A DNA stretch of 53,691 nucleotides. Source: an uncultured Candidatus Saccharibacteria bacterium. GTDB lineage: Bacteria; Patescibacteriota; Minisyncoccia; Phycocordibacterales; PALSA-1337. Both the position numbers and the translations under genes were made by a program. Positions 1 through 17,149 of the stretch are shown piece after piece (within the stretch, counting starts at the first letter, position 1; each line of letters opens with the position of its first letter). The notes under the pieces are model-generated. The model saw only the letters and a list, made by a program, of their open reading frames with translations. It was not told the DNA's origin and did not search any database. The DNA lies in the NCBI GenBank assembly GCA_964367745.1, contig CAYIYK010000005.1, positions 1 to 53,691 on the forward strand. Direction: 5' to 3'.

Positions 1-71
1 GCGGGGCTAGTTTAATGGTAGAATAGAAGTTTTCCAAACTTTTGGTGGGAGTTCGATTCTCCCGCCCCGCA
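1..71 (+). tRNA. tRNA-Gly (anticodon UCC)
   Basis: Hand-folded cloverleaf: acceptor GCGGGGC/GCCCCGC, D arm GTTT-AATGGTA-GAAT, anticodon stem GAAGT/ACTTT with loop TT-TCC-AA, T arm GGGAG-TTCGATT-CTCCC, discriminator A. CCA is not encoded. Confidence 0.9.
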
Positions 72-84
72 CAGAATAGGTAGG

Positions 85-164
85 TATAGATGTGAGCAGG
101 ACGTAACTTTATAAAGTTCTTGGTTTTTGACTAACTTTATAAAGTTTGCCTATACGCATCTATA
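85..164. repeat. Imperfect ~80-bp dyad with two copies of a self-complementary 14-mer; function unknown
   Basis: AACTTTATAAAGTT occurs at 105-118 and 133-146 and is its own reverse complement. It is flanked by TATAGATG (85-92) and CATCTATA (157-164). Confidence 0.6.
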
Positions 165-295
165 TAAAGCGCAGACTAAGGAGGATTATATTCCACTAGA
201 GCATTTTGTTTATGAAGGAATTGTAGATGGATTTAGGGTTTTGGAGAGGAAGGGGATGGGTAGGTAGAAAATGAGACGCACAGACGTTTTTAAGT

Positions 296-1030
296 TTACT
301 TAATAGATTTCTCTACAAGATCAAAAATTTGTTTTATTGAGTCAGAAATTCTTCGATTCTCAATAATGACCGCTTTCAATTCATGTCCGTCTACTATTCT
401 GACAAAATCATCACAAGCTTCAATTGAAATTTCTGAAGAATAGTCTTGTTCAGAAATAAATTTCATATTTCCGTAAATCTTAGGAAACTGTTTAAAATAT
501 TCCACTGAAGTTTCATCTTTGGGAGTTATTACCTTGATATCTATATCCAGTTTTTCATATTTTTTATTCCACCCTTTGTAGATATCAAGAGTTGTTGCTG
601 GCAGTGTTTTATTTCTTGCCCAAAAAGCTACAAGTTTTTTCCCTTTTAATTTATTTATTTTATATGCAATTGCTTCTTTCATACCCTCCATTCCTTCATA
701 ATAAAAAGTCTTCGTAGTCTTCGACGGTTGATTTATTGAGAGGAGTTTGGGTAAAGCACGCTCGAAGCTATTTATATTACTCACAGCTTGTTCATAGAGT
801 TCATCTGGTCTTTTTGCTTGGAATATAGTCTTCTTTGCATGAGGAATTTTTAGTACAAGTCCCTTTTTACGAAGCTCATCAAGGATGATATATGTGGTTG
901 GACGCTTAATCTCAGCTTTGTCGGCTATATCTGATACTGAAGCAGAGCCAAGACTCAATAGGGAAAGATATATTTTTGATTCCTTTTTCGAAAGGCCTAT
1001 TTTTTGAAGGGATTCTAGTAAATTATCCAT
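296..1030 (-). CDS. TrmB-family transcriptional regulator
   Basis: 244-aa ORF with ATG start. The N-terminal winged HTH (LQKIGLSKKESKIYLSLLSLGSASVSDIADKAEIKRPTTYIILDELRKKGLV) matches the TrmB pattern. Confidence 0.75.
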   Translation of the reverse strand: MDNLLESLQKIGLSKKESKIYLSLLSLGSASVSDIADKAEIKRPTTYIILDELRKKGLVLKIPHAKKTIFQAKRPDELYEQAVSNINSFERALPKLLSINQPSKTTKTFYYEGMEGMKEAIAYKINKLKGKKLVAFWARNKTLPATTLDIYKGWNKKYEKLDIDIKVITPKDETSVEYFKQFPKIYGNMKFISEQDYSSEISIEACDDFVRIVDGHELKAVIIENRRISDSIKQIFDLVEKSIK

Positions 1031-1053
1031 TTTTATATGCTATCAAAAGACAT

Positions 1054-1082
1054 AATAGTTGTCAATATTTCTGACAACTATT
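1054..1082. promoter_or_regulatory. Candidate operator: perfect 11-bp inverted repeat with 7-bp spacer
   Basis: AATAGTTGTCA (1054-1064) - ATATTTC - TGACAACTATT (1072-1082). It lies 24 bp upstream of the TrmB start codon, inside the divergent intergenic region. Confidence 0.45.
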
Positions 1083-1152
1083 AATTTATATTAAAATAAT
1101 GGCTTAAATTAGCCATATTTGTACTATATTTTATCAATTATCTTGATGATTT

Positions 1153-1181
1153 TTGACTAGAATTGAATTAATACATATAGT
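1153..1181 (+). promoter_or_regulatory. Sigma70-like promoter for the 1243-3200 cassette
   Basis: TTGACT (1153-1158), 17-nt spacer, TATAGT (1176-1181). About 60 nt upstream of the ATG at 1243. Confidence 0.5.
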
Positions 1182-1242
1182 ATTGCCAGACAAAAGCAGA
1201 CCTTGAAAACAACATAAGAGCAAGATCACTACCGAAACTACC

Positions 1243-1623
1243 ATGAATAAAACCACTGAAGTAGACGTCACTATGACCGAAGCAACTGAAAAGTTACTTG
1301 TTGGACCAAACTCAAATATTCGAGGATATGTCCTAGTCGACAATTGGGAAAATCGCAGGAGGATAGTAATTCTGCCAAACCGGGTCACACTTGAGGTCTA
1401 CAGAAAATCTTGTGCCTGCAGTAAATGTTTAAGTCGAGCAAAATATATTACTAGTGCTTTAGCATCCACGTCTAACTCGAAGATGGATCCAGGATGGATT
1501 GATACTGAGGGAAGCATCTGGATAACTTTCAATAAGAGTTCAGATGTTGACGGTTTAAAGTACACGAAAGACAAGCTAAAGTTCTCAAGTTTGGAGTTTG
1601 TTGAATCTGAACTTACAAGCTGA
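1243..1623 (+). CDS. Hypothetical protein (126 aa), first gene of the ribozyme-punctuated cassette
   Basis: ORF with ATG start and TGA stop. No motif recognised and the RBS is weak. The stop is followed by a GC hairpin and a hammerhead. Confidence 0.5.
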   Translation: MNKTTEVDVTMTEATEKLLVGPNSNIRGYVLVDNWENRRRIVILPNRVTLEVYRKSCACSKCLSRAKYITSALASTSNSKMDPGWIDTEGSIWITFNKSSDVDGLKYTKDKLKFSSLEFVESELTS

Positions 1624-1652
1624 GAAGTTTTAACAAAGGGGCCTAAAAACCC

Positions 1653-1707
1653 CTCCTGTAGCGAGATGCGTATCTCGCCTGATGAGTCCGAAAGGATGAA
1701 ACAGAGC
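1653..1707 (+). ncRNA. Hammerhead ribozyme, type III topology (copy 1)
   Basis: Stem III 5' strand is CTC(C)TG, then U16.1 and A17, with predicted cleavage after A1660. Stem I is GCGAGAT-GCGT-ATCTCGC (1661-1678). CTGATGA is at 1679-1685. Stem II is GTCC-GAAA-GGAT (1686-1697). GAAA is at 1698-1701, and the stem III 3' strand is CAGAG. Confidence 0.8.
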
Positions 1708-1737
1708 TCTTCACAACAAAAAAGTTAAAGGAAACAC

Positions 1738-2271
1738 ATGACGACAATCGATGCGGGCACCTTGGCTGGAATTATTAGTTCAGTATTCAAAGCCCATCAC
1801 GCTTACGCGAAAAAGGGATCGAAAAGGTTTAGAAAATGGGATGGTAAGACACCATATGGAATACACCCTACTTGGAGTGCTTTAACCCTTTTGACCGAAA
1901 CAACCCTTGATGAATGGACTCGGACTGTAGGTGTGTGGACTTTACTGAACCACGACCTACTCGAGGATACTTCCGCAAGTCTCATTTTGCCAAAAGACGA
2001 AAGGTTGAGGGCTAAGATCACTACCAACGTAAAGGATATGTCCAAAAAACCTGGCGAAAGTAAGGATGAAGAGTTTTGGAGATTAATAAATAGTAATAAT
2101 GAAATAATACTCTTCACACTTTACGATAAGGTGTCGAACCTGCTCGATGGGGCATGGATGGATGATGTTACGAAAACCATGTACACCAGTTATGTTCGCG
2201 TACTTGCTGACAACGCATTCAAGATCTACGGAGACTTGAACATAGTCAAGATTGCGAGGTCAATCATTTGA
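1738..2271 (+). CDS. Small alarmone hydrolase-like HD protein (Mesh1/SpoT hydrolase family)
   Basis: 177 aa with RBS AAAGGAAA upstream. Motifs: GKTPYGIHP (H43), LLNHDLLEDT (H72-D73, E76-D77) and LYDKVSNLLD (D130, N134). These parallel Mesh1 TPYINHP / ALLHDTVEDT / LADKLYNLRD. Confidence 0.7.
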   Translation: MTTIDAGTLAGIISSVFKAHHAYAKKGSKRFRKWDGKTPYGIHPTWSALTLLTETTLDEWTRTVGVWTLLNHDLLEDTSASLILPKDERLRAKITTNVKDMSKKPGESKDEEFWRLINSNNEIILFTLYDKVSNLLDGAWMDDVTKTMYTSYVRVLADNAFKIYGDLNIVKIARSII

Positions 2272-2291
2272 ATCATGGGGTCAAGTGACCC

Positions 2292-2344
2292 CTCTGTAGC
2301 GAGATGTGTATCTCGCCTGATGAGTCCAAAACGACGAAACAGAG
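2292..2344 (+). ncRNA. Hammerhead ribozyme, type III topology (copy 2)
   Basis: Stem III is CTCTGT/ACAGAG, 6 bp including A15.1-U16.1, with predicted cleavage after A2298. Stem I is GCGAGAT-GTGT-ATCTCGC (2299-2316). CTGATGA is at 2317-2323. Stem II is GTC-CAAAAC-GAC (2324-2335). GAAA is at 2336-2339. Confidence 0.8.
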
Positions 2345-2369
2345 TAGTACATTGAAAATCAAATAAAAT

Positions 2370-3200
2370 ATGAGCAACCACATCGCATCACTCTATTTAA
2401 CAGATGAAAAAATTGTCGAAACGACTACTATGTTGGAACAACTTCAACAACAAAGACAAAAGATACTCACAACTATGGATATTTCAGATGCAGTCTTCTT
2501 GTTAAATGAAGGTAGAAAACCAGAAGATTGCTTACAAACTGAGAATGTTCAAGTTAGAGATGAGTATAAAATACGTCAAGCTGTACTTGTCTACACACCA
2601 GGAGAGTACAAGGTTGGATTTCTACTCAGACCATCCCCAGTCCCTTCTCTTGTATCGGAGGGTATATTTCAAGGCGAAATTCGTGGACTCTATTTTATTA
2701 ACAATAAAACACAGACACTCGGATATGGGCTTGAGACACCAAGCTACAACAAATATGAAACTAATCGAGAATTAGAAACGGTGTGTATAAGATTAAGCAT
2801 CAATCTAATTGTTGGGTATGAGGTGTGTATCACACACTCCAAAAATCCTACATTGGAAGTTATCTCAACGAACGAGAAAGAATCAACTGAGGAATTATTT
2901 AGTAGAATCAATATACACCTCCGGCACAATCTTTCTGGTAGAAGGATTGAAAGCTTCCTCGCAGGCATCTCACTCTTTGGTTCAAAGAATGAACCAAAAT
3001 CTCCTGGAGATCATAATAGGCTTTTACGCAAATGCATCTCTATTTCGTTGCTTGACGGTAAGATATACGAACTGGAAGGTGTGCTTAATAGAAAAGAATT
3101 ATTTCCTGATTCAACTCATGAACCTACAACATGGTATGAGAGGGCAGAAGATCGCTATGACGCAAGAAAAAATTTTGATCATAGTGATGGCGACGGTTAA
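2370..3200 (+). CDS. Hypothetical protein (276 aa), third gene of the cassette
   Basis: Longest ORF in the region, starting 26 nt after hammerhead copy 2. No recognisable motif. A terminator follows. Confidence 0.55.
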   Translation: MSNHIASLYLTDEKIVETTTMLEQLQQQRQKILTTMDISDAVFLLNEGRKPEDCLQTENVQVRDEYKIRQAVLVYTPGEYKVGFLLRPSPVPSLVSEGIFQGEIRGLYFINNKTQTLGYGLETPSYNKYETNRELETVCIRLSINLIVGYEVCITHSKNPTLEVISTNEKESTEELFSRINIHLRHNLSGRRIESFLAGISLFGSKNEPKSPGDHNRLLRKCISISLLDGKIYELEGVLNRKELFPDSTHEPTTWYERAEDRYDARKNFDHSDGDG

Positions 3201-3236
3201 ACTGAGCTTGATTCAAAATCTTGAGATTTCAACAAC

Positions 3237-3276
3237 GGGCACACGGCCTTCTATGGTACGGTGCCCTATCTTTTTT
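3237..3276 (+). terminator. Rho-independent terminator of the cassette
   Basis: GGGCAC(A)CG ... CGGTGCCC hairpin followed by TATCTTTTTT. Confidence 0.6.
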
Positions 3277-3285
3277 ATAAAACAA

Positions 3286-3310
3286 AAAACCACATAATGA
3301 TTGTGGTTTT
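3286..3310. terminator. Bidirectional hairpin terminator (serves hup on the minus strand)
   Basis: AAAACCACA-TAATGAT-TGTGGTTTT, with A-run and T-run flanks. Confidence 0.6.
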
Positions 3311-3355
3311 CTGTTTAAGAGCTCGATCGAGCCTTTATATATAACTAACTTAATC

Positions 3356-3628
3356 CTATTTTACTGCATCCTTTAGACCCTTTGCTGCTCTAAACTTAGG
3401 AACCTTCATAGCTGGAACCTTGATAGCTTCTCCAGTTCGAGGATTTCTAGCTTCTCGAGCTGCTCTCTGTTTTACAGAGAATATACCTAGACCTGCTATT
3501 GAAACTTCCTCACCTTTCTTTAGAGAATCGATGATAGAGTTTATCATCATGTCTACAGCTTGTTCAGCTTGGACTTTAGTTCCTCCTAGTACACCGTGCA
3601 CTGCATCTACGATTGATGCTTTATTCAT
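3356..3628 (-). CDS. hup: DNA-binding protein HU
   Basis: 90 aa. MNKASIVDAV...GLGIFSVKQRAAREARNPRTGEAIKVPAMKVPKFRAAKGLKDAV is the typical HU/IHF fold signature. Confidence 0.92.
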   Translation of the reverse strand: MNKASIVDAVHGVLGGTKVQAEQAVDMMINSIIDSLKKGEEVSIAGLGIFSVKQRAAREARNPRTGEAIKVPAMKVPKFRAAKGLKDAVK

Positions 3629-3724
3629 ATTTTTTAGTAAGCATTAATTAATAATGTTTTCTAACCTCCATATAATTATATAATATGAAGCTTTTTAAGC
3701 AATAGAGCTAAAACTAGACACTTA

Positions 3725-5254
3725 TTATCTTGCGAAGTCAACTACACGTGTTTCTCGTATGATTGTAACCTTTATTTCACCTGGGTACTTTAGGTCCTTT
3801 TCTATCTTTAAAGCTATATCCCTAGCCATATTTTTCGCTTCGAGATCCGTGATTTTCTCTGGAGTAACGAAAATTCTGATTTCCCTACCTGCTTGTAGGG
3901 CATATGACTTTTCCACACCTGTGAAGTTATTTGCTATTGCTTCGAGGTCTCCAAGTCGTTTCAAATAGTTTTCGATACTGTCATGTCTTGCACCTGGACG
4001 TGCTCCAGAAATAGCGTCAGCAGTCTGAACTATACGTGACTCAACAGTTTCATAAGGGTATTCTTCATGATGAGCTTGCATTGCTTTTACTATTTCTTCA
4101 TTTGCACCAAACTTTTGAAGAATTCTTCTTCCTATCTCTACATGTGAACCTGAAACTTCATGATCTAGGGCTTTGCCTAGGTCGTGGAGAAGGGCACCAG
4201 CCTTTGCAACAGCGACATTTGCTCCTATTTCTTCAGCAATCATACCTGCTATATGTGCCATTTCTATTGAATGTTGAAGAACATTCTGTCCATAACTAGT
4301 TCTAAAGTGTAATCTTCCTAGTATTAGGATGATTCTTGGATCAAGGCCAACTACACCGCATTCATATGCAGCTTGTTCTCCTTTTTCCTTTATTGTCTTA
4401 TTTATACCTGCTTGAGCTTCTTGAACCATCTTTTCGATCTTTGCAGGTTGTATTCTTCCATCCTTTATCAATTCTTCTAGAGCAACCCTTGCTACATGTC
4501 TTCGTACTGGATCAAAAGAAGAGATGGTGATAGTTCCTGGTGTATCGTCTATAATTACTTCAACACCTGTCATTCTCTCGAATGTCTTTATATTTCTACC
4601 TTCTTTACCTATTATCTTTCCTTTTATCTCATCATTTGGAATAGTTACTGATGTAGACATTACATCTGAAGCAACAGAATTTGCTAGTCTTTGTATTGAT
4701 GTCGCAAGAATATCCTGAGCTTTTTTCTCAAGTACTTCTTCACCGTTTTGCTCAAGCTTTTTGATTCTAATCAATAAGTCTTCTTCACTATTCTTCTCTA
4801 TAGTATTTATTAGAAGCTGTTTGGCCTCCTCAGTAGTCATCTTGGCTACTTTTTGAAGGGTTTCTGCTTTCTCTTTTTCTATATTTTCAGCTTTTTCTTT
4901 TATAAGCCTAATCTCAGCCACTTTTTCTTTTATGGCTTCGATTTCTTTGTCTATATCTGTCTGCCTCTTGTCTAGCAAATCCTCCTTCTTGATCAATCTA
5001 GACTCAGTTTGCTGTATCTTGTCTTCCTTTTCTTTTATCTCTACTCTCGCTTCTTCTAATATTTTCTTTGATTTTGTATCTGCTTCTGTGGTAATTTTCT
5101 TCGCTTCTTCCTTTGCAGTTAGAAGCATTTCCTTTATTTCAAGCTCCATTGACCCCTTTTTACCCAAAGAGATAATGAGTCTCAAGTAGTAACCGATTGC
5201 TACACCGGCAATACCTGCAATGCTCAAAAGTAAAGCTACTAATTTTAATGACAT
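3725..5254 (-). CDS. rny: Ribonuclease Y
   Basis: 509 aa with an N-terminal TM helix, a Lys/Glu coiled coil, a KH domain (GKIIGKEGRNIKTFE) and an HD domain (LLHDLGKA). Confidence 0.92.
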   Translation of the reverse strand: MSLKLVALLLSIAGIAGVAIGYYLRLIISLGKKGSMELEIKEMLLTAKEEAKKITTEADTKSKKILEEARVEIKEKEDKIQQTESRLIKKEDLLDKRQTDIDKEIEAIKEKVAEIRLIKEKAENIEKEKAETLQKVAKMTTEEAKQLLINTIEKNSEEDLLIRIKKLEQNGEEVLEKKAQDILATSIQRLANSVASDVMSTSVTIPNDEIKGKIIGKEGRNIKTFERMTGVEVIIDDTPGTITISSFDPVRRHVARVALEELIKDGRIQPAKIEKMVQEAQAGINKTIKEKGEQAAYECGVVGLDPRIILILGRLHFRTSYGQNVLQHSIEMAHIAGMIAEEIGANVAVAKAGALLHDLGKALDHEVSGSHVEIGRRILQKFGANEEIVKAMQAHHEEYPYETVESRIVQTADAISGARPGARHDSIENYLKRLGDLEAIANNFTGVEKSYALQAGREIRIFVTPEKITDLEAKNMARDIALKIEKDLKYPGEIKVTIIRETRVVDFAR

Positions 5255-5399
5255 ATGCGAATATCGATTCGCCTTTCAGAACTTAACTTTGTGTATTCAG
5301 TAAACTTCTTTCGTTATTTGGAATGATCATGACACGTCGTTTCAGCCTCTTTTGAGGAATCGAAAAATTAAATTTGATAACGGCCTCACTGTATCACGA

Positions 5400-5969
5400 T
5401 TAAAGAATCTTGTCGATGATACCGTATTTTCGAGCTTCTTCTGAATCCATAAAGAAGTTTCTGTCTACATCTTTTTCAATCTTAGTTATTGGTTGACCAG
5501 TATTTTTTGAAAGCATTTTATTTAGACCTTCTCGAGTTTTCAATATATGCTTAGCACTGATTTCAATATCTGATGCTTGTCCTTCAGCTCCACCAAGTGG
5601 TTGATGAATCATCACTTCAGAATTTGGTAAAGCAAATCTCTTTCCTTTTTTTCCAGATGAAAGGATAAGCGCACCCATTGATGCAGCTACACCAACACAG
5701 ACTGTTGATACATCATTTTTAATATTGTTCATTGTATCTATGATTGCTAGTCCTGCTGTAACAACACCTCCAGGTGAGTTTACATAAAGTGTAATATCTT
5801 TCTTTGGATCTTCCGCCTGTAAGAATAGAAGTTGAGCAATGATGATGTTTGCTACATGGTCATCTATCGGTCCAGCAAGGAAAATAATGTTTTCTTTTAA
5901 TAATCTTGAATATATATCATAAGCCCTTTCGCCCATGCTTGTTTTCTCTATTACGGTTGGTATTAACAT
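5400..5969 (-). CDS. clpP: ATP-dependent Clp protease proteolytic subunit
   Basis: 189 aa. [21 protein letters not shown], catalytic GVAASMGA and MIHQPLGG. Confidence 0.95.
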
Positions 5970-6127
5970 GTTTTTTATAGAGGTTTTACCCTCAAATTAA
6001 TTGTAAGATTTCATGATACCTTATGTCTAGTTTTTCGCAACTAAAATGTTATTTGACGAAAATAAAACATATTTTGACTTGCTAATCTATATTTGTTAAC
6101 TTTACTCTAGAAACGAAAGGAAACCAT

Positions 6128-6739
6128 ATGAATTATCGTGCAGTGGGACAAAGGTGTGCAGTTGATATCGATTCATTAGATCTAGAAATTACGAGTGATG
6201 AAGCAGTACTGATACTGCTTAATAACGGTTTTAAAATTGTTCATGTTGATATTGTTGAATTGGCTCGCGAATGTATTGGCGCATCAAAGTATCGACGAGG
6301 TGCTAGACCAGATGAAGCTCCAGAAGTCTTTGATTGCTCATCTTTTATCAAGTGGCTTTATGGACAGTGTGGTATTTGGTTGCCACGTCGCTCTATCCAA
6401 CAGATGAGTCTTGGAGAAAAGATTGAAATGGATTCAATATGTGCTGGAGATGTTGTCTTTGTTTCTGGAGTGATTGATTATTACCACGATGATCCTACTA
6501 AGGGTGTCGGTCATGTGGGTATCGCTAGTTCCTCCAATACAGTTATTCACGCAGCAAATGGAAAAATTGGAGTGGCCGAAATTCCTCTAGATAAATTTAT
6601 CGGCGAAGACAAATTTCGTGGTGTAAGGAGATACGTTCCTGATAATCGTAGAATTTTAACATTCAAGACACCGGCGGATAGACATGTTGAAATTGAAGAT
6701 GATTTTAGATGGATTATACTCCAATCTCTTCCGAAATAG
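6128..6739 (+). CDS. NlpC/P60 (C40) family cysteine peptidase-like protein, no signal peptide
   Basis: FDCSSFIKWLY (catalytic Cys), GHVGI (His), VIHAAN. No N-terminal hydrophobic segment. Confidence 0.7.
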   Translation: MNYRAVGQRCAVDIDSLDLEITSDEAVLILLNNGFKIVHVDIVELARECIGASKYRRGARPDEAPEVFDCSSFIKWLYGQCGIWLPRRSIQQMSLGEKIEMDSICAGDVVFVSGVIDYYHDDPTKGVGHVGIASSSNTVIHAANGKIGVAEIPLDKFIGEDKFRGVRRYVPDNRRILTFKTPADRHVEIEDDFRWIILQSLPK

Positions 6740-6749
6740 TAAATAACAA

Positions 6750-6792
6750 AAGAACTCTCGCTTCAAACCATGATGCAAGAGTTCTTTCTTTT
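6750..6792 (+). terminator. Rho-independent terminator
   Basis: AAGAACTCT (6750-6758) pairs with AGAGTTCTT (6778-6786), followed by TCTTTT. Confidence 0.5.
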
Positions 6793-6818
6793 AATATAAG
6801 AAGATATATAATAGTTTC

Positions 6819-7511
6819 ATGAAACTACACAGATTTTTTTGTGATGAAAAGCTGACAGATAGGAAGTCAGTGGTTATTACCCATGCACCCTTGGTCAATC
6901 AATTGAAAAATGTTTTTCGGTTGGTTAAGGGTGATAAGATAATACTTTTTGATAATTCTGGCTTTGATTATGGAGTTAGTATAGAAGGCTTCGAAAAAGA
7001 ATCTGTTTCATTTTTGGTGGACAGCGTAACTCCAAACAAAGTGTTTCCCATACGAGAAACATATCTCTTCGCATCAATAGTTAAAAAAGATAATTTTGAA
7101 TGGATTACACAGAAGGCAACCGAGCTTGGAGTTTCACATATAATTCCAATCATTTCTGATCGCACAGAAAAGAAGGATTTAAATAAAGAAAGAATTCAGA
7201 AAATTATTGTAGAAGCTAGTGAGCAGTCGGGTAGGGGGACATTACCTGTTTTGTCTGAAGTGATGCATCTAGAAACTGCATTACAAAAATTTGGACATGT
7301 GAAATCTATAGCTTGGCATACTCAAGCAGAGAAGTTTGTTTCACAAGATCTCGGTGATACTTTAGGTGCGTATATTGGACCTGAAGGTGGTTGGTCAGAT
7401 TCTGAAATTGAGTTATTCAAAAAGCATGGTATTAGAATACGATCTCTCGGTCCACAAGTTTTAAGATCAGAAACAGCCGTGATATCAGTCATCACTCTTT
7501 CTGTTTTTTAA
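6819..7511 (+). CDS. rsmE: 16S rRNA (uracil1498-N3)-methyltransferase RsmE
   Basis: 230 aa. MKLHRFF start, PUA-like N-terminus, and a C-terminal SPOUT knot (GPEGGWSDSEI, LGPQVLRSETA). Confidence 0.85.
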   Translation: MKLHRFFCDEKLTDRKSVVITHAPLVNQLKNVFRLVKGDKIILFDNSGFDYGVSIEGFEKESVSFLVDSVTPNKVFPIRETYLFASIVKKDNFEWITQKATELGVSHIIPIISDRTEKKDLNKERIQKIIVEASEQSGRGTLPVLSEVMHLETALQKFGHVKSIAWHTQAEKFVSQDLGDTLGAYIGPEGGWSDSEIELFKKHGIRIRSLGPQVLRSETAVISVITLSVF

Positions 7512-7546
7512 TATTTACTATTTCTATTTATTCTATATAGAATAAA

Positions 7547-8545
7547 TTATTTTACTCCTTCCAAGAATTGATATACTTTCTCGTTTGTTAGTACAGTCTC
7601 AGCATAAGCAAAAGCTCTCTCTCGATCTGCATCTTTGTAGTGAGCTAGAATATGTTTCACCTCCTCCTCAATCTCTTTTACATCGACTTCAATTTTCTCT
7701 AGTTTCACAATCTCATTTAGTATCAGTTGAAGCTTTGCCTTTTTCTCAGCATGAGGTCTCCATTCAGATCTTATCTCCTCAATTGTTTTCTTTGCATGTT
7801 TCAAATAGTCCTCGATCTTAACACCCATACGATTTATATCATCGTTGAATTGTGCTTCAGTTCTTTTTGTTTCACTGTCGATAAGTATTTCTGGAACATC
7901 TATTTTTGATGAAGATATAAGCGCATCAGAAATTGCAATTCTTCTTTTTTCAACTGCTTGAATCTTTTTATTTTCCAAAAGATATTTCTTCACCTCTTCT
8001 TTTGATTCTGGAGAGTCGTGATCGTGACCCGCGTGATCAGCATGTGACTCTTTTATTTTCTTTATTGCATCTTCAACTTCTTTATCTGTTACTTCAAATT
8101 TTTCTTCAGGTTTACTATTTATTTCTCTTGAAAGGTTTTTATAATCCCCTAGTTTAACTTCTGGAATAACTGTAGTTACGATTTTAAATTCCAAAGGATT
8201 ATCCATTGCTAGTTTTGTAACACTTATCTCTGGTCTACCGATCGCATCGATTTTTTCTGATATTACGATTTCTGGATATGCTCTTCCCAAAGCTAGTTCA
8301 GCCATCTCTTCCAATATAGTCATATCACCAACTTTACTTACGATTATATTTTCTGGAACTTTTCCTTTTCTAAAACCATCAATAGTGATTTCATTGTTGA
8401 TATTTTCCAATGCTTGCTTTCTAAAAGATGAGAAATATTCCAAATCAATAGAACCTACAATCTCGATTTTTGAGCCATCGATTTTCTTCAATTCATATTT
8501 ATATGGATTAGCACCTTCCTTTGTTTTTACTGTTTGTTTTTTCAT
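7547..8545 (-). CDS. tig: Trigger factor lacking the PPIase domain
   Basis: The N-terminal ribosome-binding domain has FRKGKVP, and the C-terminal arm domain is present. The ATG at 8545 is preferred over the TTG at 8554. See the finding for this gene. Confidence 0.8.
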   Translation of the reverse strand: MKKQTVKTKEGANPYKYELKKIDGSKIEIVGSIDLEYFSSFRKQALENINNEITIDGFRKGKVPENIIVSKVGDMTILEEMAELALGRAYPEIVISEKIDAIGRPEISVTKLAMDNPLEFKIVTTVIPEVKLGDYKNLSREINSKPEEKFEVTDKEVEDAIKKIKESHADHAGHDHDSPESKEEVKKYLLENKKIQAVEKRRIAISDALISSSKIDVPEILIDSETKRTEAQFNDDINRMGVKIEDYLKHAKKTIEEIRSEWRPHAEKKAKLQLILNEIVKLEKIEVDVKEIEEEVKHILAHYKDADRERAFAYAETVLTNEKVYQFLEGVK

Positions 8546-8570
8546 GGTTTTCAAAGTCTACAATATAAAC

Positions 8571-11497: not shown

Positions 11498-14400
11498 ATG
11501 AAAAATAATTTTAAAAAAATACAAAATCTGACAGTATTCCTAATCGCTATAGCATTCTTTGTATTTGGTAATGCTCAAATATCATCAGCTCAAACAACGT
11601 CTAATTTTGGAGCTATTACAGATTATTCAAACAAGCAAGTGATTGAGAATCCAGCAAATGTTGTCGGAGATCCAAGTCAAATATCATCATCTAGTTGTCC
11701 TGATGGTTCTGTTTTGGTTGGATTTAATTTGTACAATCAAGGAAGTAATTACAGTAGATTGGGGAGTTTGTATTGTAGATCAGTGGAGGTGAATCTAGGA
11801 GGTGCATCTGTTTATACAAAAATGTTAATAGAGAACCCTCGTACAGGTGGAGCAAATTCTACTCAGATAAATAGTTCAAGTTGTCCAAATGGTTTCGCTG
11901 CTATAGGTTTTAACGTCTTGAATGCAGGTTCAAACGCTTCTAGTGAAGGTATACTATATTGTAAACAAGTCTTATCTGCAAAGGTGAGTTCAACAGGGCA
12001 GACTCAGTCTGTTTCAATTGGCTCTCAAAACACAATTAGAAAAACAGTTATAGAGAACCCTTTCGGGAGCGGTGGAAATTCAACTCAAATTGCAGCTTCT
12101 TCGTGTCCAGATGATTATGTAATTACGGGCTTCAATCTTATAGATATGGGAGAAAATTACAGTAGGTCAAATGACTTATATTGTAGTAAGCTAACTTTTA
12201 CACCAAATCCACTAGAATTCGATTTTTCAATATCAGGTGATGGGCATCGCTATATCTATCCCGGTGATACTGTTTCAAATGCTCTGTTCATAAACTCTGT
12301 TGTTTCAAATGTTTCAGGAGATGTTAAATTAACTATAGATTCAATAAAAAATAGCAATGGTGTAAGTGTTATGAATGCTACAAATGGATTTACTGTAAGT
12401 GCAAATCCTTTTAGTCCAAAAACAAATACAGCCACACTTTCCCCAACTATCAAACAAGTAACCACACCTCTATCTTTTATAGCAAATAATTCTGTATTGC
12501 CTGATACATATACTGTGAATGTTTCCGGTGTCTATACAAAAACAGTTGCTGGAACATCTGGTAGTGTTACAAATTATTATTGTAGCTTAGTATGGGAGGG
12601 TAGAGATTATTACTTTGGTTGCGGACCTGATTCAAATTTTAACCCAAAAGATGATTATCAAAATGGTCAATCTTCATCTGTGAAATGTATAGAAGGAGAC
12701 ACATTCGGTCCTGAACCAAGTTGTGCGTCTGCACAAAAAGTACTGACTTTTTTTGCTAAAGAACAGATCAGAGATTTCAGACAATCATACGGTCGTTCAA
12801 TTTGCCCAGGTACTGTAAATGTGGTTGGTGATGCGGATAATCCAAATACAGATTTCACTTGTGTTGTCACGGCTGTTGCTCCAGTAACACAAACAATAAA
12901 TAAATCGACGACTTTTGATGTTATCGTGCAACCACCCGTGGCGAATATTGATTATGCTCTGTCAGCAACTCCTTCACCTGATGGATGTCCAGCTTCATCA
13001 TTGTTTATAACAGCAAACTGGAAAGCAGTTCCTAATGCTAGTTCATACAATCTATATAGATTCGAAGGAAATAATAATCAAACACCGACAGCGACTATCT
13101 CAGTAACCAGCTTACCAGTGAATGGATATGTAGAATATGTAGATAGAGCATTTAGTAATTACAATGTCCTTGTTCAATATAATGTCGCTGCTGTAGTCAA
13201 CGGGGTAGAGGTAAAAAAATCTGATTTTGTTTCGGTATATACACCAAAATTAACCACAAATTGTATACCTCCAGTTACTCCTGTTGTTAAATTGTTTACA
13301 AAAAAGACTAATGATACCGTAACGAATCTAAGCGCAATGGATGCAAACACGGCTATCACAACTGCAAATACCGAGATATCAATATCAAAAAATGAAGCCT
13401 TTGATCTAAAATGGGTAAGTAACCTGGGTCCAAACTATACATGTACACAAGTCACTGTTCTACCAAATGGAACAACAAATAATACACGAATCGTATATGG
13501 TAATTCTACGAATGGTACGAGTATTGGTATAGCTGGATCAAATCTAGATACAGGAACGAATCTTCTAAAGGTATCTTGTTCAAACGGTGTTGCTGTATTG
13601 AGTAATGTGGTAAGAATTACGGTTCTATTTGAGCCTATATACAACTTCAGTGTTATACCTTCAGGCGACCAATGTCTAGCTTCAGATGTGTGGATAAAAC
13701 AAACTTGGACAGCAGTACCAGGAGCAAGTTCATATAAGATTGCAAGAACAGGTGGATCAGGACCAGTTAACTATACTATCGCATCTCCAAATCTTATAAA
13801 TAACGAAGACCACAATGCTTTCAATAGCACTACAGCAACAGCATATACTTATGTTGTAACTGCAGTAATAGGAGGAGTTGATCAAACACCTTCAGCGCCT
13901 ATAACAATCACATCCCCTAGATCAGGAGTGAATTGTCCACCAGCACCCGTCTTGAAACTCTTTACTAAGAAAAATTCAGATACTTCTATAAACTTAAGTA
14001 ATTACGATACATCTACTGCAATAAATACCGCAAATACAGAAATTTCTCTAAATAGAAATGAAAGTTTTGATCTAAAGTGGGTAAGTAATCTAGACGCTAG
14101 TTATACATGTACACAAGATACTCAGGTTCCAGGGGGAAGTACAAACAACACTATTTGGCCATATGGAAATAGTAGAAGTGGAGCTGCCGTAGATCTACGA
14201 GCAACGGGGCAAGCGGTAGGTTTGTATAATCTAAAGGTATCCTGTACAAATGGTACATCTCAGATAAGTAATATTGTGAAGATCACAATCCTACCTGATC
14301 CAATAGTATATAATCTAAGTGTTATATCATCAGGCGACCAATGTTTGAGTTCTAATGTTTCTATAATGCAGTCTTGGTCAGCAGTATCTGGTGCAACTTC

Positions 14401-17149
14401 ATATAAAATCACAAGAACTGGAGGAACTGGACCTGTCACTTATACTATCGCATCACCAACTCTAACAAACACTGAACCATACGCTGCTTTTAGTAGCACA
14501 CCTACATCATACACATACACAGTTTCTGCTGTCGTTGGCGGAGTAGAGCAACAAGCTTCAGAACCTATAACTATTCTTTCACCAAGAGTTGTTTGTCCGG
14601 TCGGAACCCCAGCAATAAAGATTTTTATTAGAAAGTCTAATGATACTTCAGTAAATATTACTTCATTCAATGTTCTATCGGCTTTAAATTCCTCAAATAC
14701 GAATGCGTCAGTTAAAATGGGTCAAGATTCATTTGATTTAAAATGGGCAAGTAATCTAGGTACTGGTTATACATGTAGTCAGGTTACAACTAGACCTGGA
14801 GGAAGCTCAGGAAATGGACTGTGGAGTTACGGATCATATATAAATGGTGCAGCTTATGGTCTTGGTACATCAGGATATCTTCCTGGAGCATATACATTCT
14901 CAGTATCATGTACAAACGGGGCCTCAACTGTTGTAAGTAATGTAGTGGATTTAACTATAATTGATCCATTAAATTACAAATTGAACGTGATTACATCAGG
15001 AGATCAGTGTTTAACATCAGATATCTGGATTAAGCAATCTTGGTCAATAATATCTAATGCAACTTCATATAAGATAACAAGAACTGGTGGAGCTGGAACC
15101 GTAGTATACAATGTACCGTCTATCCCTACATTGAATACTGAACTATTTGGTTCATTCAGTAGTACACCTACAGCTTATACATATACAATCTCTGCAATAG
15201 TTGGTGGTGTAGAACAACTAGCTTCTGCTCCGATAACTATAACCTCACCTAAGGTATATTGTCCTGTCACACCAGTTATCAAGCTTTTTACTAGAAAATC
15301 TACGGATTCAACAGTTAACTTCTCAGCATATACAACCGCAACAGCATTAATTCCACAAAATAGTGATATTGTGGTTACAAAAGGTCAAGAATATTTTGAT
15401 TTGAAATGGATGAGTAGTCTTGATAATAGTTATGTCTGTACTCAAGTAACAACAACGCCAACTGGTACTACAAACAATGCGCTGTGGAGTTATGGAACAT
15501 ACCCGAATGGAACAGTATACTGGCAAGGAACAGGTTCTGTAGCTACGGGAGTATATGGTTTTAAGGTCTCATGTACAAAAGGAGCATCAACTGTAGAAAG
15601 TAATACTGTAAATGTAAATATAGTTAATCCTATAAGTTACAACTTCATCGTCGCTCCCTCAGCAAATCAATGTGATATAAATAACTTACAAATCCGCCTA
15701 ACATGGAGTCTAATACCAGGTGCCACAAGTTATAGAATAACTAGAACACAAGTTAGTACAGGGCAAACAAGCAACTATGCAGTCTCAAGCGGAATATTTA
15801 CACAAAGTCTTGCAAACGGAACCGCGGCTTTTGTTCAGGGTGTAGATTATACCTATAAGGTTGTAGCGGTGGCTAACGGTGTTGCTATTGCACCATCATC
15901 ACCAACAATTGTTGTTAGATCTCCATCACAAGATACAACTCTGTGTTCTACACTATCTCTTAAACTTGAAGTAAAGAAGTCAACAGAATCAAATACTCTT
16001 TATCGTTCGGCGATTACTATCAATAAAGGTGAAAATTTCGATATAAGATGGACTATAGTGAATCCAAACGGTAGTGTCTATATGAATTCAAATAGTGTTA
16101 TTGGTCCTCAAGGAATAAATGGTAATGGTCTATGGACTTGGGGAACAGGAAGTAGTGGAAGTAGAACAGGTTTGAGTTCGACACCTCAAGCTGTGGTTGC
16201 TGGAGATTATATATTTAAGATTGATATGCTAGATACATCAACAGGGAATTATGTATTAGCTTTGAGTAGTAATTCTGCTAAGGTGACTATTATAAACACA
16301 ACAACAGATGTTTGTCCGAATCTTCCTGGTATTCAGACTGTGGTTCCGGATGCGATGGTTAAGGATAGTGGTGGTAATTGCATAATGACTAATGGTGGTG
16401 GAGGGGGATCTGATCCAAATATTAAGTTGTTTATCGGTGATACTTCTGTTAAGACATATGATCTATCTAGTCCAATACCAACTACTCCATACCAAAGAAA
16501 TAGAGGCGAAAGCTTTACTTTGAAGTGGGTAAGTAATCTTCCGTCTGGATTCGAATGTAGTTCACAGACTCATAATTCAAATAACAACCCCGTTAACACA
16601 TGGTTATGGAATCAATCAAATCAAACTGTGGGATTTAATGATTTGCAAACAAATTCAGCAAACCCCGATACCTATAGTTTCGATATTTACTGTGTTGATT
16701 CAAATAATCCATCGTTGACTCCACGAGTAGGTAATACGGCAAAAATGGCTCTATCTGATATAGCTATAGATCCAAATTCTATAAAACTATTTATCGGTGG
16801 AGCAAATATACTATCAAACAATTTGGCTACACCTATAAATCCAAATGCTACATATAAAGTTAAAAAGGGTAGTAGATTCAATCTATTGTGGGATAGTAAT
16901 CTAAACAATAGTTATGAATGTACAGCAAATACAAAAAAGAGTGATGGTATAGAATTCACTACATGGGATTGGAATACAAATAAAAGTAAGGGTGATAAAA
17001 CAACAAACCTTACAACTGGAAACGTTGAAAAGGGTATATATAGCTTCCAGTTATTCTGTACTGATCCAGCACAAGATCCTGGAAATCCTGATAAACAAAG
17101 TAACATAGTGAAGCTACAGGTAGTAGAATCAACAATCATAGAACAGTAG
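11498..17149 (+). CDS. Giant secreted repeat protein (1883 aa), Fn3-like/Ig-like modules
   Basis: Uninterrupted ORF with signal peptide (VFLIAIAFFVFGNAQISSAQ). It has three N-terminal Cys-containing repeats, then alternating A (..W.AVPGASSYKI.RTGG..) and B (..KLFTKK....FDLKWVSNL...YTC.Q..) modules. Confidence 0.9.
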   Translation: MKNNFKKIQNLTVFLIAIAFFVFGNAQISSAQTTSNFGAITDYSNKQVIENPANVVGDPSQISSSSCPDGSVLVGFNLYNQGSNYSRLGSLYCRSVEVNLGGASVYTKMLIENPRTGGANSTQINSSSCPNGFAAIGFNVLNAGSNASSEGILYCKQVLSAKVSSTGQTQSVSIGSQNTIRKTVIENPFGSGGNSTQIAASSCPDDYVITGFNLIDMGENYSRSNDLYCSKLTFTPNPLEFDFSISGDGHRYIYPGDTVSNALFINSVVSNVSGDVKLTIDSIKNSNGVSVMNATNGFTVSANPFSPKTNTATLSPTIKQVTTPLSFIANNSVLPDTYTVNVSGVYTKTVAGTSGSVTNYYCSLVWEGRDYYFGCGPDSNFNPKDDYQNGQSSSVKCIEGDTFGPEPSCASAQKVLTFFAKEQIRDFRQSYGRSICPGTVNVVGDADNPNTDFTCVVTAVAPVTQTINKSTTFDVIVQPPVANIDYALSATPSPDGCPASSLFITANWKAVPNASSYNLYRFEGNNNQTPTATISVTSLPVNGYVEYVDRAFSNYNVLVQYNVAAVVNGVEVKKSDFVSVYTPKLTTNCIPPVTPVVKLFTKKTNDTVTNLSAMDANTAITTANTEISISKNEAFDLKWVSNLGPNYTCTQVTVLPNGTTNNTRIVYGNSTNGTSIGIAGSNLDTGTNLLKVSCSNGVAVLSNVVRITVLFEPIYNFSVIPSGDQCLASDVWIKQTWTAVPGASSYKIARTGGSGPVNYTIASPNLINNEDHNAFNSTTATAYTYVVTAVIGGVDQTPSAPITITSPRSGVNCPPAPVLKLFTKKNSDTSINLSNYDTSTAINTANTEISLNRNESFDLKWVSNLDASYTCTQDTQVPGGSTNNTIWPYGNSRSGAAVDLRATGQAVGLYNLKVSCTNGTSQISNIVKITILPDPIVYNLSVISSGDQCLSSNVSIMQSWSAVSGATSYKITRTGGTGPVTYTIASPTLTNTEPYAAFSSTPTSYTYTVSAVVGGVEQQASEPITILSPRVVCPVGTPAIKIFIRKSNDTSVNITSFNVLSALNSSNTNASVKMGQDSFDLKWASNLGTGYTCSQVTTRPGGSSGNGLWSYGSYINGAAYGLGTSGYLPGAYTFSVSCTNGASTVVSNVVDLTIIDPLNYKLNVITSGDQCLTSDIWIKQSWSIISNATSYKITRTGGAGTVVYNVPSIPTLNTELFGSFSSTPTAYTYTISAIVGGVEQLASAPITITSPKVYCPVTPVIKLFTRKSTDSTVNFSAYTTATALIPQNSDIVVTKGQEYFDLKWMSSLDNSYVCTQVTTTPTGTTNNALWSYGTYPNGTVYWQGTGSVATGVYGFKVSCTKGASTVESNTVNVNIVNPISYNFIVAPSANQCDINNLQIRLTWSLIPGATSYRITRTQVSTGQTSNYAVSSGIFTQSLANGTAAFVQGVDYTYKVVAVANGVAIAPSSPTIVVRSPSQDTTLCSTLSLKLEVKKSTESNTLYRSAITINKGENFDIRWTIVNPNGSVYMNSNSVIGPQGINGNGLWTWGTGSSGSRTGLSSTPQAVVAGDYIFKIDMLDTSTGNYVLALSSNSAKVTIINTTTDVCPNLPGIQTVVPDAMVKDSGGNCIMTNGGGGGSDPNIKLFIGDTSVKTYDLSSPIPTTPYQRNRGESFTLKWVSNLPSGFECSSQTHNSNNNPVNTWLWNQSNQTVGFNDLQTNSANPDTYSFDIYCVDSNNPSLTPRVGNTAKMALSDIAIDPNSIKLFIGGANILSNNLATPINPNATYKVKKGSRFNLLWDSNLNNSYECTANTKKSDGIEFTTWDWNTNKSKGDKTTNLTTGNVEKGIYSFQLFCTDPAQDPGNPDKQSNIVKLQVVESTIIEQ
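12953..16300 (+). repeat. Five tandem ~666-nt (about 222-aa) A+B supermodules inside the giant gene
   Basis: The conserved Tyr codon that opens each A module is at 12953, 13640, 14309, 14975 and 15638. The last four are spaced 663-669 nt apart. Confidence 0.8.

Follow-up and report, generated by a model that had tools for sequence, protein, structure and literature searches.

What might a pair of self-cleaving RNA elements do inside a short operon on the chromosome of an uncultured Saccharibacteria bacterium? The question is raised by contig CAYIYK010000005.1 (assembly GCA_964367745.1), of which the forward strand from position 1 to 53,691 is the whole stretch of DNA analyzed here (the window, 53.7 kb). 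Three co-directional open reading frames (ORFs) on the + strand, ORF1 to ORF3, are separated by two gaps, and the same element is present in both of them (Table 1). Judged from their sequences, both elements are type III hammerhead ribozymes of the active type. They belong to one large family, akin to the standard engineered hammerhead, which is spread across the chromosomes of Patescibacteria (candidate phyla radiation, CPR) and some phage contigs. We consider it likely that the two ribozymes would split the three-gene transcript into separate mRNAs with protected ends.

The catalytic core is complete in both copies (CUGAUGA, GAA, an A15.1-U16.1 pair and a non-G nucleotide, A, at position 17), and both have three helices, stems I and II being closed by loops and stem III being open, with lengths of 7, 3-4 and 6 bp. 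In copy 1, the 5' strand of stem III (1654-1659; CCUGU with one bulged C) is followed by A17 (A1660), the stem I hairpin (1661-1678; 7 bp, loop GCGU), CUGAUGA (1679-1685), stem II (1686-1697; GUCC-GAAA-GGAU, with a G10.1-U11.1 pair), GAA (1698-1700) and the 3' strand of stem III (ACAGAG, 1701-1706), so that stem III consists of 4 bp, the bulged C and 2 bp. Copy 2 has the same order, with the 5' strand of stem III at 2292-2297, A17 at A2298, stem I at 2299-2316 (loop GUGU), CUGAUGA at 2317-2323, stem II at 2324-2335 (3 bp and a C.C mismatch), GAA at 2336-2338 and ACAGAG at 2339-2344. Cleavage is predicted between A1660 and G1661 in ribozyme 1 and between A2298 and G2299 in ribozyme 2. A preliminary description of this locus, made from the DNA letters alone, had presented the elements as full type III hammerheads with this core, these helices and these cleavage sites; the Rfam and family-model matches given below bear this out, and its coordinates, cleavage sites and fragment length of 638 nt were correct.

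A covariance search with the Rfam hammerhead models had been proposed there as a check. The type III model, RF00008 (Hammerhead_3), matched both sites, with whole-window E-values of 2e-4 (37.0 bits) and 1.5e-3 (33.9 bits); the alignment was full-length (model positions 1-54) with every core position matched, and none of the other hammerhead types outscored Hammerhead_3 at either site. With Rfam at its gathering threshold, a tRNA alone was found in the window, and the hammerheads appear in E-value mode. A second covariance model, R1, was built from 59 hammerheads of other genomes with the window excluded; its matches to the two elements are listed in Table 1, and its next best match in the 53.7-kb window scored 14 bits. 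The string CTGATGA-N(6-30)-GAAAC occurs three times in the window, versus 0.22 expected. Copy 2 is predicted to have the hammerhead as its minimum-free-energy fold.

The two copies form a 56-nt direct repeat, 638 nt apart, which is the sole long repeat in window positions 1-3800. Their identity is 89% rather than the ~85% estimated previously, and the earlier statement that all differences lie in loops or preserve pairing has to be amended, since the change from G to C at 2332 breaks a pair of stem II. The search for the same motif between homologous ORFs, likewise suggested at the outset, was positive: two orthologous loci that are ~90% identical to the window (L002 and L003; L numbers denote the loci of this analysis) retain a hammerhead in both gaps. 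One of the hammerheads shows a compensatory change in stem III (CUUCUGU/ACAGAAG), and the other, the counterpart of ribozyme 2, has a GUC triplet and a longer, expanded stem II. A metagenome scan with the stem I of the window returned six contigs with unrelated contexts and no further copy of the cassette.

The family to which the two elements belong was recovered from one genome per species with a pattern in which the core, stem II and the stem III 3' strand were specified and nothing else. At least 119 stretches were found, nearly all in metagenome-assembled genomes of Patescibacteria; the lineages include Saccharibacteria, Paceibacteria, Taylor-, Kaiser-, Nomura-, Berkel- and Doudnabacteria, and others. 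Counts on genomic family members (128 matches, 118 copies, 119 loci) rest on the matches listed, here and throughout. Of the 128 pattern matches, 115 were complete hammerheads, meaning that stem I is perfectly paired, that stem III has 4 bp or more and that position 17 is not G; shuffling of the upstream sequence gave an expectation of 0.07. At position 17, 82 copies have C, 20 have A, 16 have U and no copy has G, and positions 10.1-11.1 are G-C in 101, U.U in 14 and G.U in 3. With model R1, 159 hammerheads were found in 100 loci, many of them in same-strand arrays of 3-5 with a spacing of 350-1000 nt. Co-directional ORFs lie on both sides of 77 of the 118 family members, and the downstream start codon is typically 20-40 nt away. 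Only one of ~20 family members tested reaches the RF00008 threshold; the family is therefore mostly missed by standard annotation.

Covariation supports the helices. In the 59-sequence set, six of the seven stem I pairs change on both sides. Since that set had been preselected for a perfect stem I, a second, independent set aligned by covariance model was used (56 distinct sequences, mostly from viral contigs). Here 15 of 18 pairs change on both sides, paired cells amount to 88% versus 68% in shuffles and at most 53% with slid partners, and none of 500 shuffles reaches the observed value by any measure. The loop sequences are also conserved, loop 1 being approximately GUGU with a closing U-A or U-G pair and loop 2 being AAAA or GAAA, which is compatible with a tertiary contact between the two.

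Positions 10.1 and 11.1 also show a pattern of their own. They switch jointly from G-C to U.U (14 of 118 copies listed; 19 "other" among 52 in the independent set), as in L015, L034, L037, L054, L089 and L002:514-568. U-C is essentially absent among complete hammerheads, and A at the cleavage site is overrepresented in copies with U.U.

Each hammerhead is preceded by a feature that the preliminary description did not mention, an accessory hairpin that abuts stem III. A hairpin of at least 5 bp ending 0-3 nt before stem III is present in 79% of the genomic copies and in 81% of the viral copies; equal folding stability is reached by only 29% of shuffled sequences. On the downstream side, 54% of the CPR hammerheads have G[UA][UA]C[UAC]UU within the next 24 nt, compared with 1.4% of background windows and none of the 51 viral copies. 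The motif is most often GUUCUUU, often followed by GA, and lies 1-10 nt past stem III. No covariation was detected between this motif and loop 2, position 11.1 or position 17. Pairing of the motif with loop 2 and the 3' strand of stem II (AAAGGAC-GUUCUUU), or with the freed stem III strand, was considered and rejected, since covariation is absent, copies with long stem II inserts keep the motif and the pairing does not suit the copies in the window.

In the window, the three-gene unit has a single promoter-like site, and terminators are found solely after ORF3; a scan of the ORF1-ORF2 and ORF2-ORF3 gaps returned no promoter-like and no terminator-like sites. TTGCCAGA, which follows the -10 hexamer, is conserved in L002 and L024. 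The terminator-like hairpin at 3237-3276 was read by eye and is absent from the list of the automated scan. The two coding-strand hammerheads flank individual genes of what would be one transcription unit, as in the clusters described by Perreault et al. in 2011, and the initial proposal that the ribozymes punctuate a co-directional three-gene unit agrees with this arrangement of signals.

Table 1. Features of the ribozyme-bearing island, in order of position in the window
Feature	Position	Strand	Remarks
TrmB-like winged-helix regulator gene	296-1030	-	Pfam TrmB, E 1e-15; divergent from the ribozyme operon
Palindrome between the divergent genes, TGTCAATATTTNTGACA	1053-1083	.	13-bp inverted repeat; core TGTCA-N7-TGACA at 1060-1076
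Promoter-like site of the three-gene unit, TTGACT-17-TATAGT	1153-1181	+	10/12 consensus matches; consensus match alone
ORF1, 126 aa, rare fast-evolving small protein with NWxNRR and CxxC motifs	1243-1623	+	7 relatives among 1.84 billion representative proteins
Accessory hairpin 1, GGGG-N8-CCCC	1638-1653	+	Abuts stem III of ribozyme 1
Hammerhead ribozyme 1, type III (predicted)	1653-1707	+	RF00008 33.9 bits; model R1 68.2 bits, E 8.9e-17; conserved in L001, L002
Degenerate downstream motif, GCUCUUC	1706-1712	+	After ribozyme 1
ORF2, 177 aa, MESH1/small-alarmone-hydrolase-like HD protein	1738-2271	+	94 homologues, mostly CPR
Accessory hairpin 2, GGGGUC-AAGU-GACCCC	2277-2292	+	Abuts stem III of ribozyme 2; conserved in L002, L003
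Hammerhead ribozyme 2, type III (predicted)	2291-2345	+	RF00008 37.0 bits; model R1 69.2 bits, E 4.6e-17
Downstream motif, GUACAUUGA	2347-2355	+	After ribozyme 2
ORF3, 276 aa, orphan protein	2370-3200	+	One homologue, 92% identity
Terminator-like hairpin and U-tract, end of the three-gene unit	3237-3276	+	GGGCAC...GUGCCC, then UAUCUUUUUU; read from sequence
Second hairpin	3280-3316		Found in the repeat scan of window 1-3800

The function that we propose is the separation and insulation of cistrons. A single RNA would run from the promoter near 1153-1181 to the terminator near 3237-3276, and each ribozyme would fold as its spacer is transcribed and would cut after A1660 or after A2298, yielding three monocistronic mRNAs. 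Each upstream product would end with a stable hairpin, a tail of ~7 nt and a 2',3'-cyclic phosphate; a 5'-OH and then the compact hairpins of stems I and II would form the start of each downstream product. Ends of either type should hinder exonucleases and 5'-end-dependent RNases, and the stability and translation of each cistron would become independent of its neighbors, as with a synthetic ribozyme insulator. End protection and insulation are suggested by the precise placement of the accessory hairpin at the 3' end that cleavage would create.

Several points weigh against this proposal. Both copies score below the RF00008 gathering score of 48.5 bits, which is a curation cut-off rather than a biological criterion and misses most of the hammerhead family. 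The hammerhead fold of copy 1 lies 2.7 kcal/mol above the predicted minimum-free-energy fold. Both copies have a GUA triplet versus the GUC of the family, copy 1 has the G.U pair at 10.1-11.1 and the bulged stem III, and stem II of copy 2 has 3 bp; given these deviations from the family consensus, the cleavage rates may be modest. The downstream motif is not explained by insulation. Finally, the benefit of cistron separation is still a hypothesis even for the examples of 2011 (PMC6765202).

Among the alternatives, the one that survives best, which we nevertheless regard as unlikely, is that the hairpin-ribozyme module is primarily a cassette boundary for the gain, loss and shuffling of genes, by recombination at the 60-100-nt modules or through an RNA intermediate, RNA cleavage being secondary or serving mobility. 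The cargo of the family is in keeping with this: the 184 unique flanking proteins are small, highly diverse and almost all singletons, with few Pfam, PHROG or PADLOC matches (PHROG matches are rare among 99 downstream proteins), and the modules stand in same-strand arrays of 3-5. Twelve of the 119 loci, from different CPR species (L011, L026, L031, L041, L045, L049, L052, L065, L082, L085, L119 and L122), are no more than a few kb from the conserved trigger factor (TF)-RsmE-ClpP-RNase Y-HU block, and their cassettes, with or without a TrmB-like gene, occur at different junctions of it. This block looks like a hot spot for cassettes, and the RNase Y gene is often their immediate neighbor. L122 has the arrangement of the window with different cargo, and in L065 only ~400 bp separate tRNA-Gly and HU versus 3.3 kb in the window. 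Comparison of the window with L002 points in the same direction. ORF1 is the sole strongly diverged segment (50-65% nucleotide identity versus 88-98% elsewhere; 46% amino acid identity to its counterpart versus 90-92% for ORF2 and ORF3), and the divergence (window 1300-1640 versus L002:190-510) stops at the hairpin and ribozyme 1, which suggests allele replacement or rapid diversification of ORF1. Remote homologues of ORF1 adjoin hammerheads in L014 and L049, at differing positions relative to them. Moreover, where hammerheads flank one small gene (L014, L017, L084, L104, L059 and the window; spacing 470-700 nt), their stem I sequences are usually the same or almost the same, in contrast to the free variation of stem I from locus to locus; in L014 and L084, a further 60-117 nt on the upstream side belong to the repeat. 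Identical flanking ribozymes could, however, also be explained by local duplication or gene conversion. No consistent integrase, reverse transcriptase or transposase accompanies the modules (one Phage_integrase match among 123 ORFs of 15 array loci), and no att-like tRNA repeat bounds the island of the window. The strict conservation of the catalytic nucleotides, with no G at position 17, argues for selection on RNA catalysis and not on a DNA site.

The arrangement in the window also brings to mind circularization, in which the 638-nt middle RNA (1661-2298) would be closed by the reverse hammerhead reaction or by an RtcB-type ligase to give a circular hydrolase mRNA. In the predicted fold this is structurally possible: the 3' end of the fragment (...CUCUGUA>p) can pair over 6 bp with its own ACAGAG, rebuilding a full hammerhead and drawing the two ends close to each other, and both hairpins form in the joined sequence. 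In five of six closely spaced flanking pairs, the two stem I sequences are identical or almost so, and stem III is common to all. This compatibility follows automatically from the family-wide CUGU/ACAG stem III, however, and most family members are single copies or flank several genes. Circular or spliced products were sought for clustered bacterial hammerheads and none was detected (PMC3088659). No ligase was identified in this analysis. The idea is unsupported, and we think it very doubtful.

We give equally little credence to the view that the ribozymes mainly down-tune or gate expression, with cleavage that triggers decay or is conditional, and without insulation or stabilization. Cleavage would remove the 5' triphosphate, ribozymes in untranslated regions altered reporter expression (review PMC6765202), the downstream motif peculiar to CPR might serve as a site for a protein or an RNase, and the RNase Y gene is often close to the cassettes. 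Nevertheless, the stable hairpin at the new 3' end in ~80% of copies and the compact hairpins at the 5' end resemble end protection, neither a ligand-binding domain nor an alternative helix was detected, and covariation between motif and ribozyme is absent. The remaining possibility, that the elements are chance or decayed, inactive hammerhead-like sequences, would fit the scores under the Rfam threshold and the small deviations from consensus in both copies, but is effectively refuted by the E-values of ~1e-16 with an independent family model, the intact catalytic nucleotides, the orthologous copies kept with compensatory changes and the excess of complete hammerheads among the pattern matches (115 of 128 versus 0.07 expected).

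A regulator is associated with the family. The window contains exactly one TrmB-like gene, and it adjoins the ribozymes. TrmB-like homologues are present in 43 of the 119 CPR hammerhead loci (47 matches in 833 kb) and in none of the viral loci (436 kb). In 24 of the 43 the gene is divergently oriented and lies on the upstream side of the nearest hammerhead, typically at a distance of 500-860 nt, which leaves room for one small gene between them, as in the window. The TGTCA-N7-TGACA core of the palindrome at 1053-1083 recurs at the same place beside the TrmB-like gene in both L024 and L064, with partial conservation in L037. The palindrome is a probable operator, and we infer that the TrmB-like protein would bind it and regulate the operon.

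With respect to the cargo of the window, ORF1 has no family match other than a weak, sub-threshold hit to Pfam RepA_N, and ORF3 has none, its single-sequence AlphaFold model being unusable (predicted local distance difference test score, pLDDT, 33). The ORF2 sequence on its own matched nothing in Pfam, NCBIfam or the PDB. The profile of its family (A5), however, matches PDB entries 3nr1 (E 1e-11), 5vxa (E 1e-10) and 3nqw (MESH1/HDDC3), in the range of 1e-11 to 2e-10, with weaker matches to Rel hydrolase domains; Pfam HD_4 is matched by four of 45 family members, and among the putative metal-ligand residues H43 and D73 are invariant and H72 is nearly so. These matches give fair support to the label "alarmone-hydrolase-like", and the same type had been predicted from sequence in the first reading of the locus. 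A specific link between the ribozymes and the alarmone hydrolase, which that reading had also implied, was rejected: the homologues L004-L008 lack ribozymes, including L004 with 51% identity, and ~180 unrelated proteins flank the other hammerheads. In L004-L008, the closest ribozyme-free homologues of ORF2 (51% identical) stand beside a CYTH-domain gene, downstream of a tRNA.

The locus in the window is a small variable island, bordered by tRNA-Gly on one side and the HU/RNase Y/ClpP gene block on the other. It comprises the TrmB-like regulator gene, the palindrome and the divergent operon of ORF1, the alarmone-hydrolase-like ORF2 and the orphan ORF3, and its neighbors are tRNA-Gly, HU, RNase Y, ClpP and trigger factor. 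The hairpin at 3280-3316 probably terminates the convergent HU gene. Three other readings of the island were considered and rejected. Against integration at the tRNA, a search of 1-3800 gave no direct repeat matching the 3' end of tRNA-Gly, and 1-8554 has no integrase. A prophage or viral origin is at odds with the housekeeping neighbors, the absence of the window from the viral contig collection and the rarity of PHROG matches to the cargo; no phage proteins were found near the cassette and no phage structural genes in the window. As to a defence system, PADLOC returned no match for ORF1-ORF3 and only scattered matches in the array loci. Two exact copies of a palindromic 15-mer, TAACTTTATAAAGTT, lie at 104-118 and 132-146, just downstream of tRNA-Gly, and a very large ORF of 1883 aa occupies 11498-17149 on the + strand.

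Arrays of 3-5 family members with GC-rich upstream hairpins are also found in viral contigs (e.g. L136, L137, L142, L131 and L154), where neither a TrmB-like gene nor the downstream motif was found. In another viral contig, a DUF805b RNA motif of Rfam (L130:3733-3765; 42.7 bits, above threshold) lies ~500 nt downstream of a hammerhead.

Ribozyme-delimited cistrons as such are not new, contrary to the assumption made in the preliminary description. Perreault et al. reported in 2011 multiple hammerheads flanking single genes or short gene blocks, and demonstrated that polycistronic RNAs of ~2 kb are cleaved in vitro and that one arrangement is cleaved in vivo. They proposed that the transcripts are processed to single-gene mRNAs and also raised the possibility of circular or spliced products, which they sought and did not detect (PMC3088659). 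The present loci resemble those clusters in that same-strand hammerheads stand between co-directional, non-constant and mostly hypothetical genes, and in that arrays of the family occur in viral contigs too. They differ in the setting of the window, which is not a prophage and has the tRNA-Gly and housekeeping genes named above as neighbors, in the Patescibacteria host, and in the divergent TrmB-like gene and the CPR-specific downstream motif. The examples of 2011 include types I, II and III, whereas the family here is all type III. Within the open-access papers searched, hammerheads turned up neither for CPR, Patescibacteria or Saccharibacteria nor in connection with TrmB-like regulators. What appears to be undescribed is a CPR-wide system of ribozyme-punctuated variable arrays with a regulator.

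A close relative in structure is the engineered hammerhead, which is also of type III and has a near-identical string of core, stem II and stem III, CUGUC...CUGAUGAGUCC-N4-GGACGAAACAG, and a loop 1 with UGUG. The core and stem II string was confirmed in engineered self-cleaving constructs, and we take it to come from the satellite ribozyme of tobacco ringspot virus and to be the one used in RiboJ. RiboJ combines a hammerhead with an extra hairpin and decouples a cistron from its upstream context. Its extra hairpin lies 3' of the ribozyme, whereas in the family it lies 5', on the upstream product. The engineered and satellite ribozymes have GUGA as loop 2, unlike the AAAA or GAAA of the family, and the satellite ribozyme processes rolling-circle multimers of an RNA replicon, whereas the family copies are DNA-encoded in bacterial operons. 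Relative to RF00008, the window copies agree over the full length and at all core positions and differ in score (34-37 versus 48.5 bits).

Two further systems offer partial likenesses. Integron arrays, as an analogy only, share the same-strand order of small, diverse, mostly unknown genes, a structured repeat of 60-100 nt and variable cargo at any one site of the chromosome; the family differs in having no integron integrase and no attC-type R''/R' core, and its repeat is a catalytic RNA under ribozyme rules. Retrozymes and viroid-like RNAs likewise have two near-identical, direct type III hammerheads that flank a short (638 nt in the window), potentially religatable segment; here that segment is a protein-coding bacterial gene in an operon, with no retroelement genes nearby.

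The finding bears on a question, the role of self-cleaving ribozymes in bacteria, that was still open in a review of 2019 (PMC6765202). The family presents a repeatable architecture, consisting of a TrmB-like gene with a conserved operator, a small first gene and a repeated unit of hairpin, hammerhead, motif and gene, which makes the functional question testable with metatranscriptomes and cultivable Saccharibacteria. The family would also offer natural insulator parts. There is an outside chance that hairpin, hammerhead and downstream motif together form a lineage-wide Patescibacteria system of cassette boundaries, which would cut cistrons apart and serve as the unit of exchange. The same slender prospect attaches to its wider form, in which variable arrays of small orphan genes, often with a divergent TrmB-like gene, would possibly pass through circular RNA intermediates. 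If true, such a system would be a ribozyme-based functional analogue of integron arrays and would give bacterial hammerheads a defined role. The arrays mark variable islands of orphan genes, which may be relevant to the episymbiotic lifestyle.

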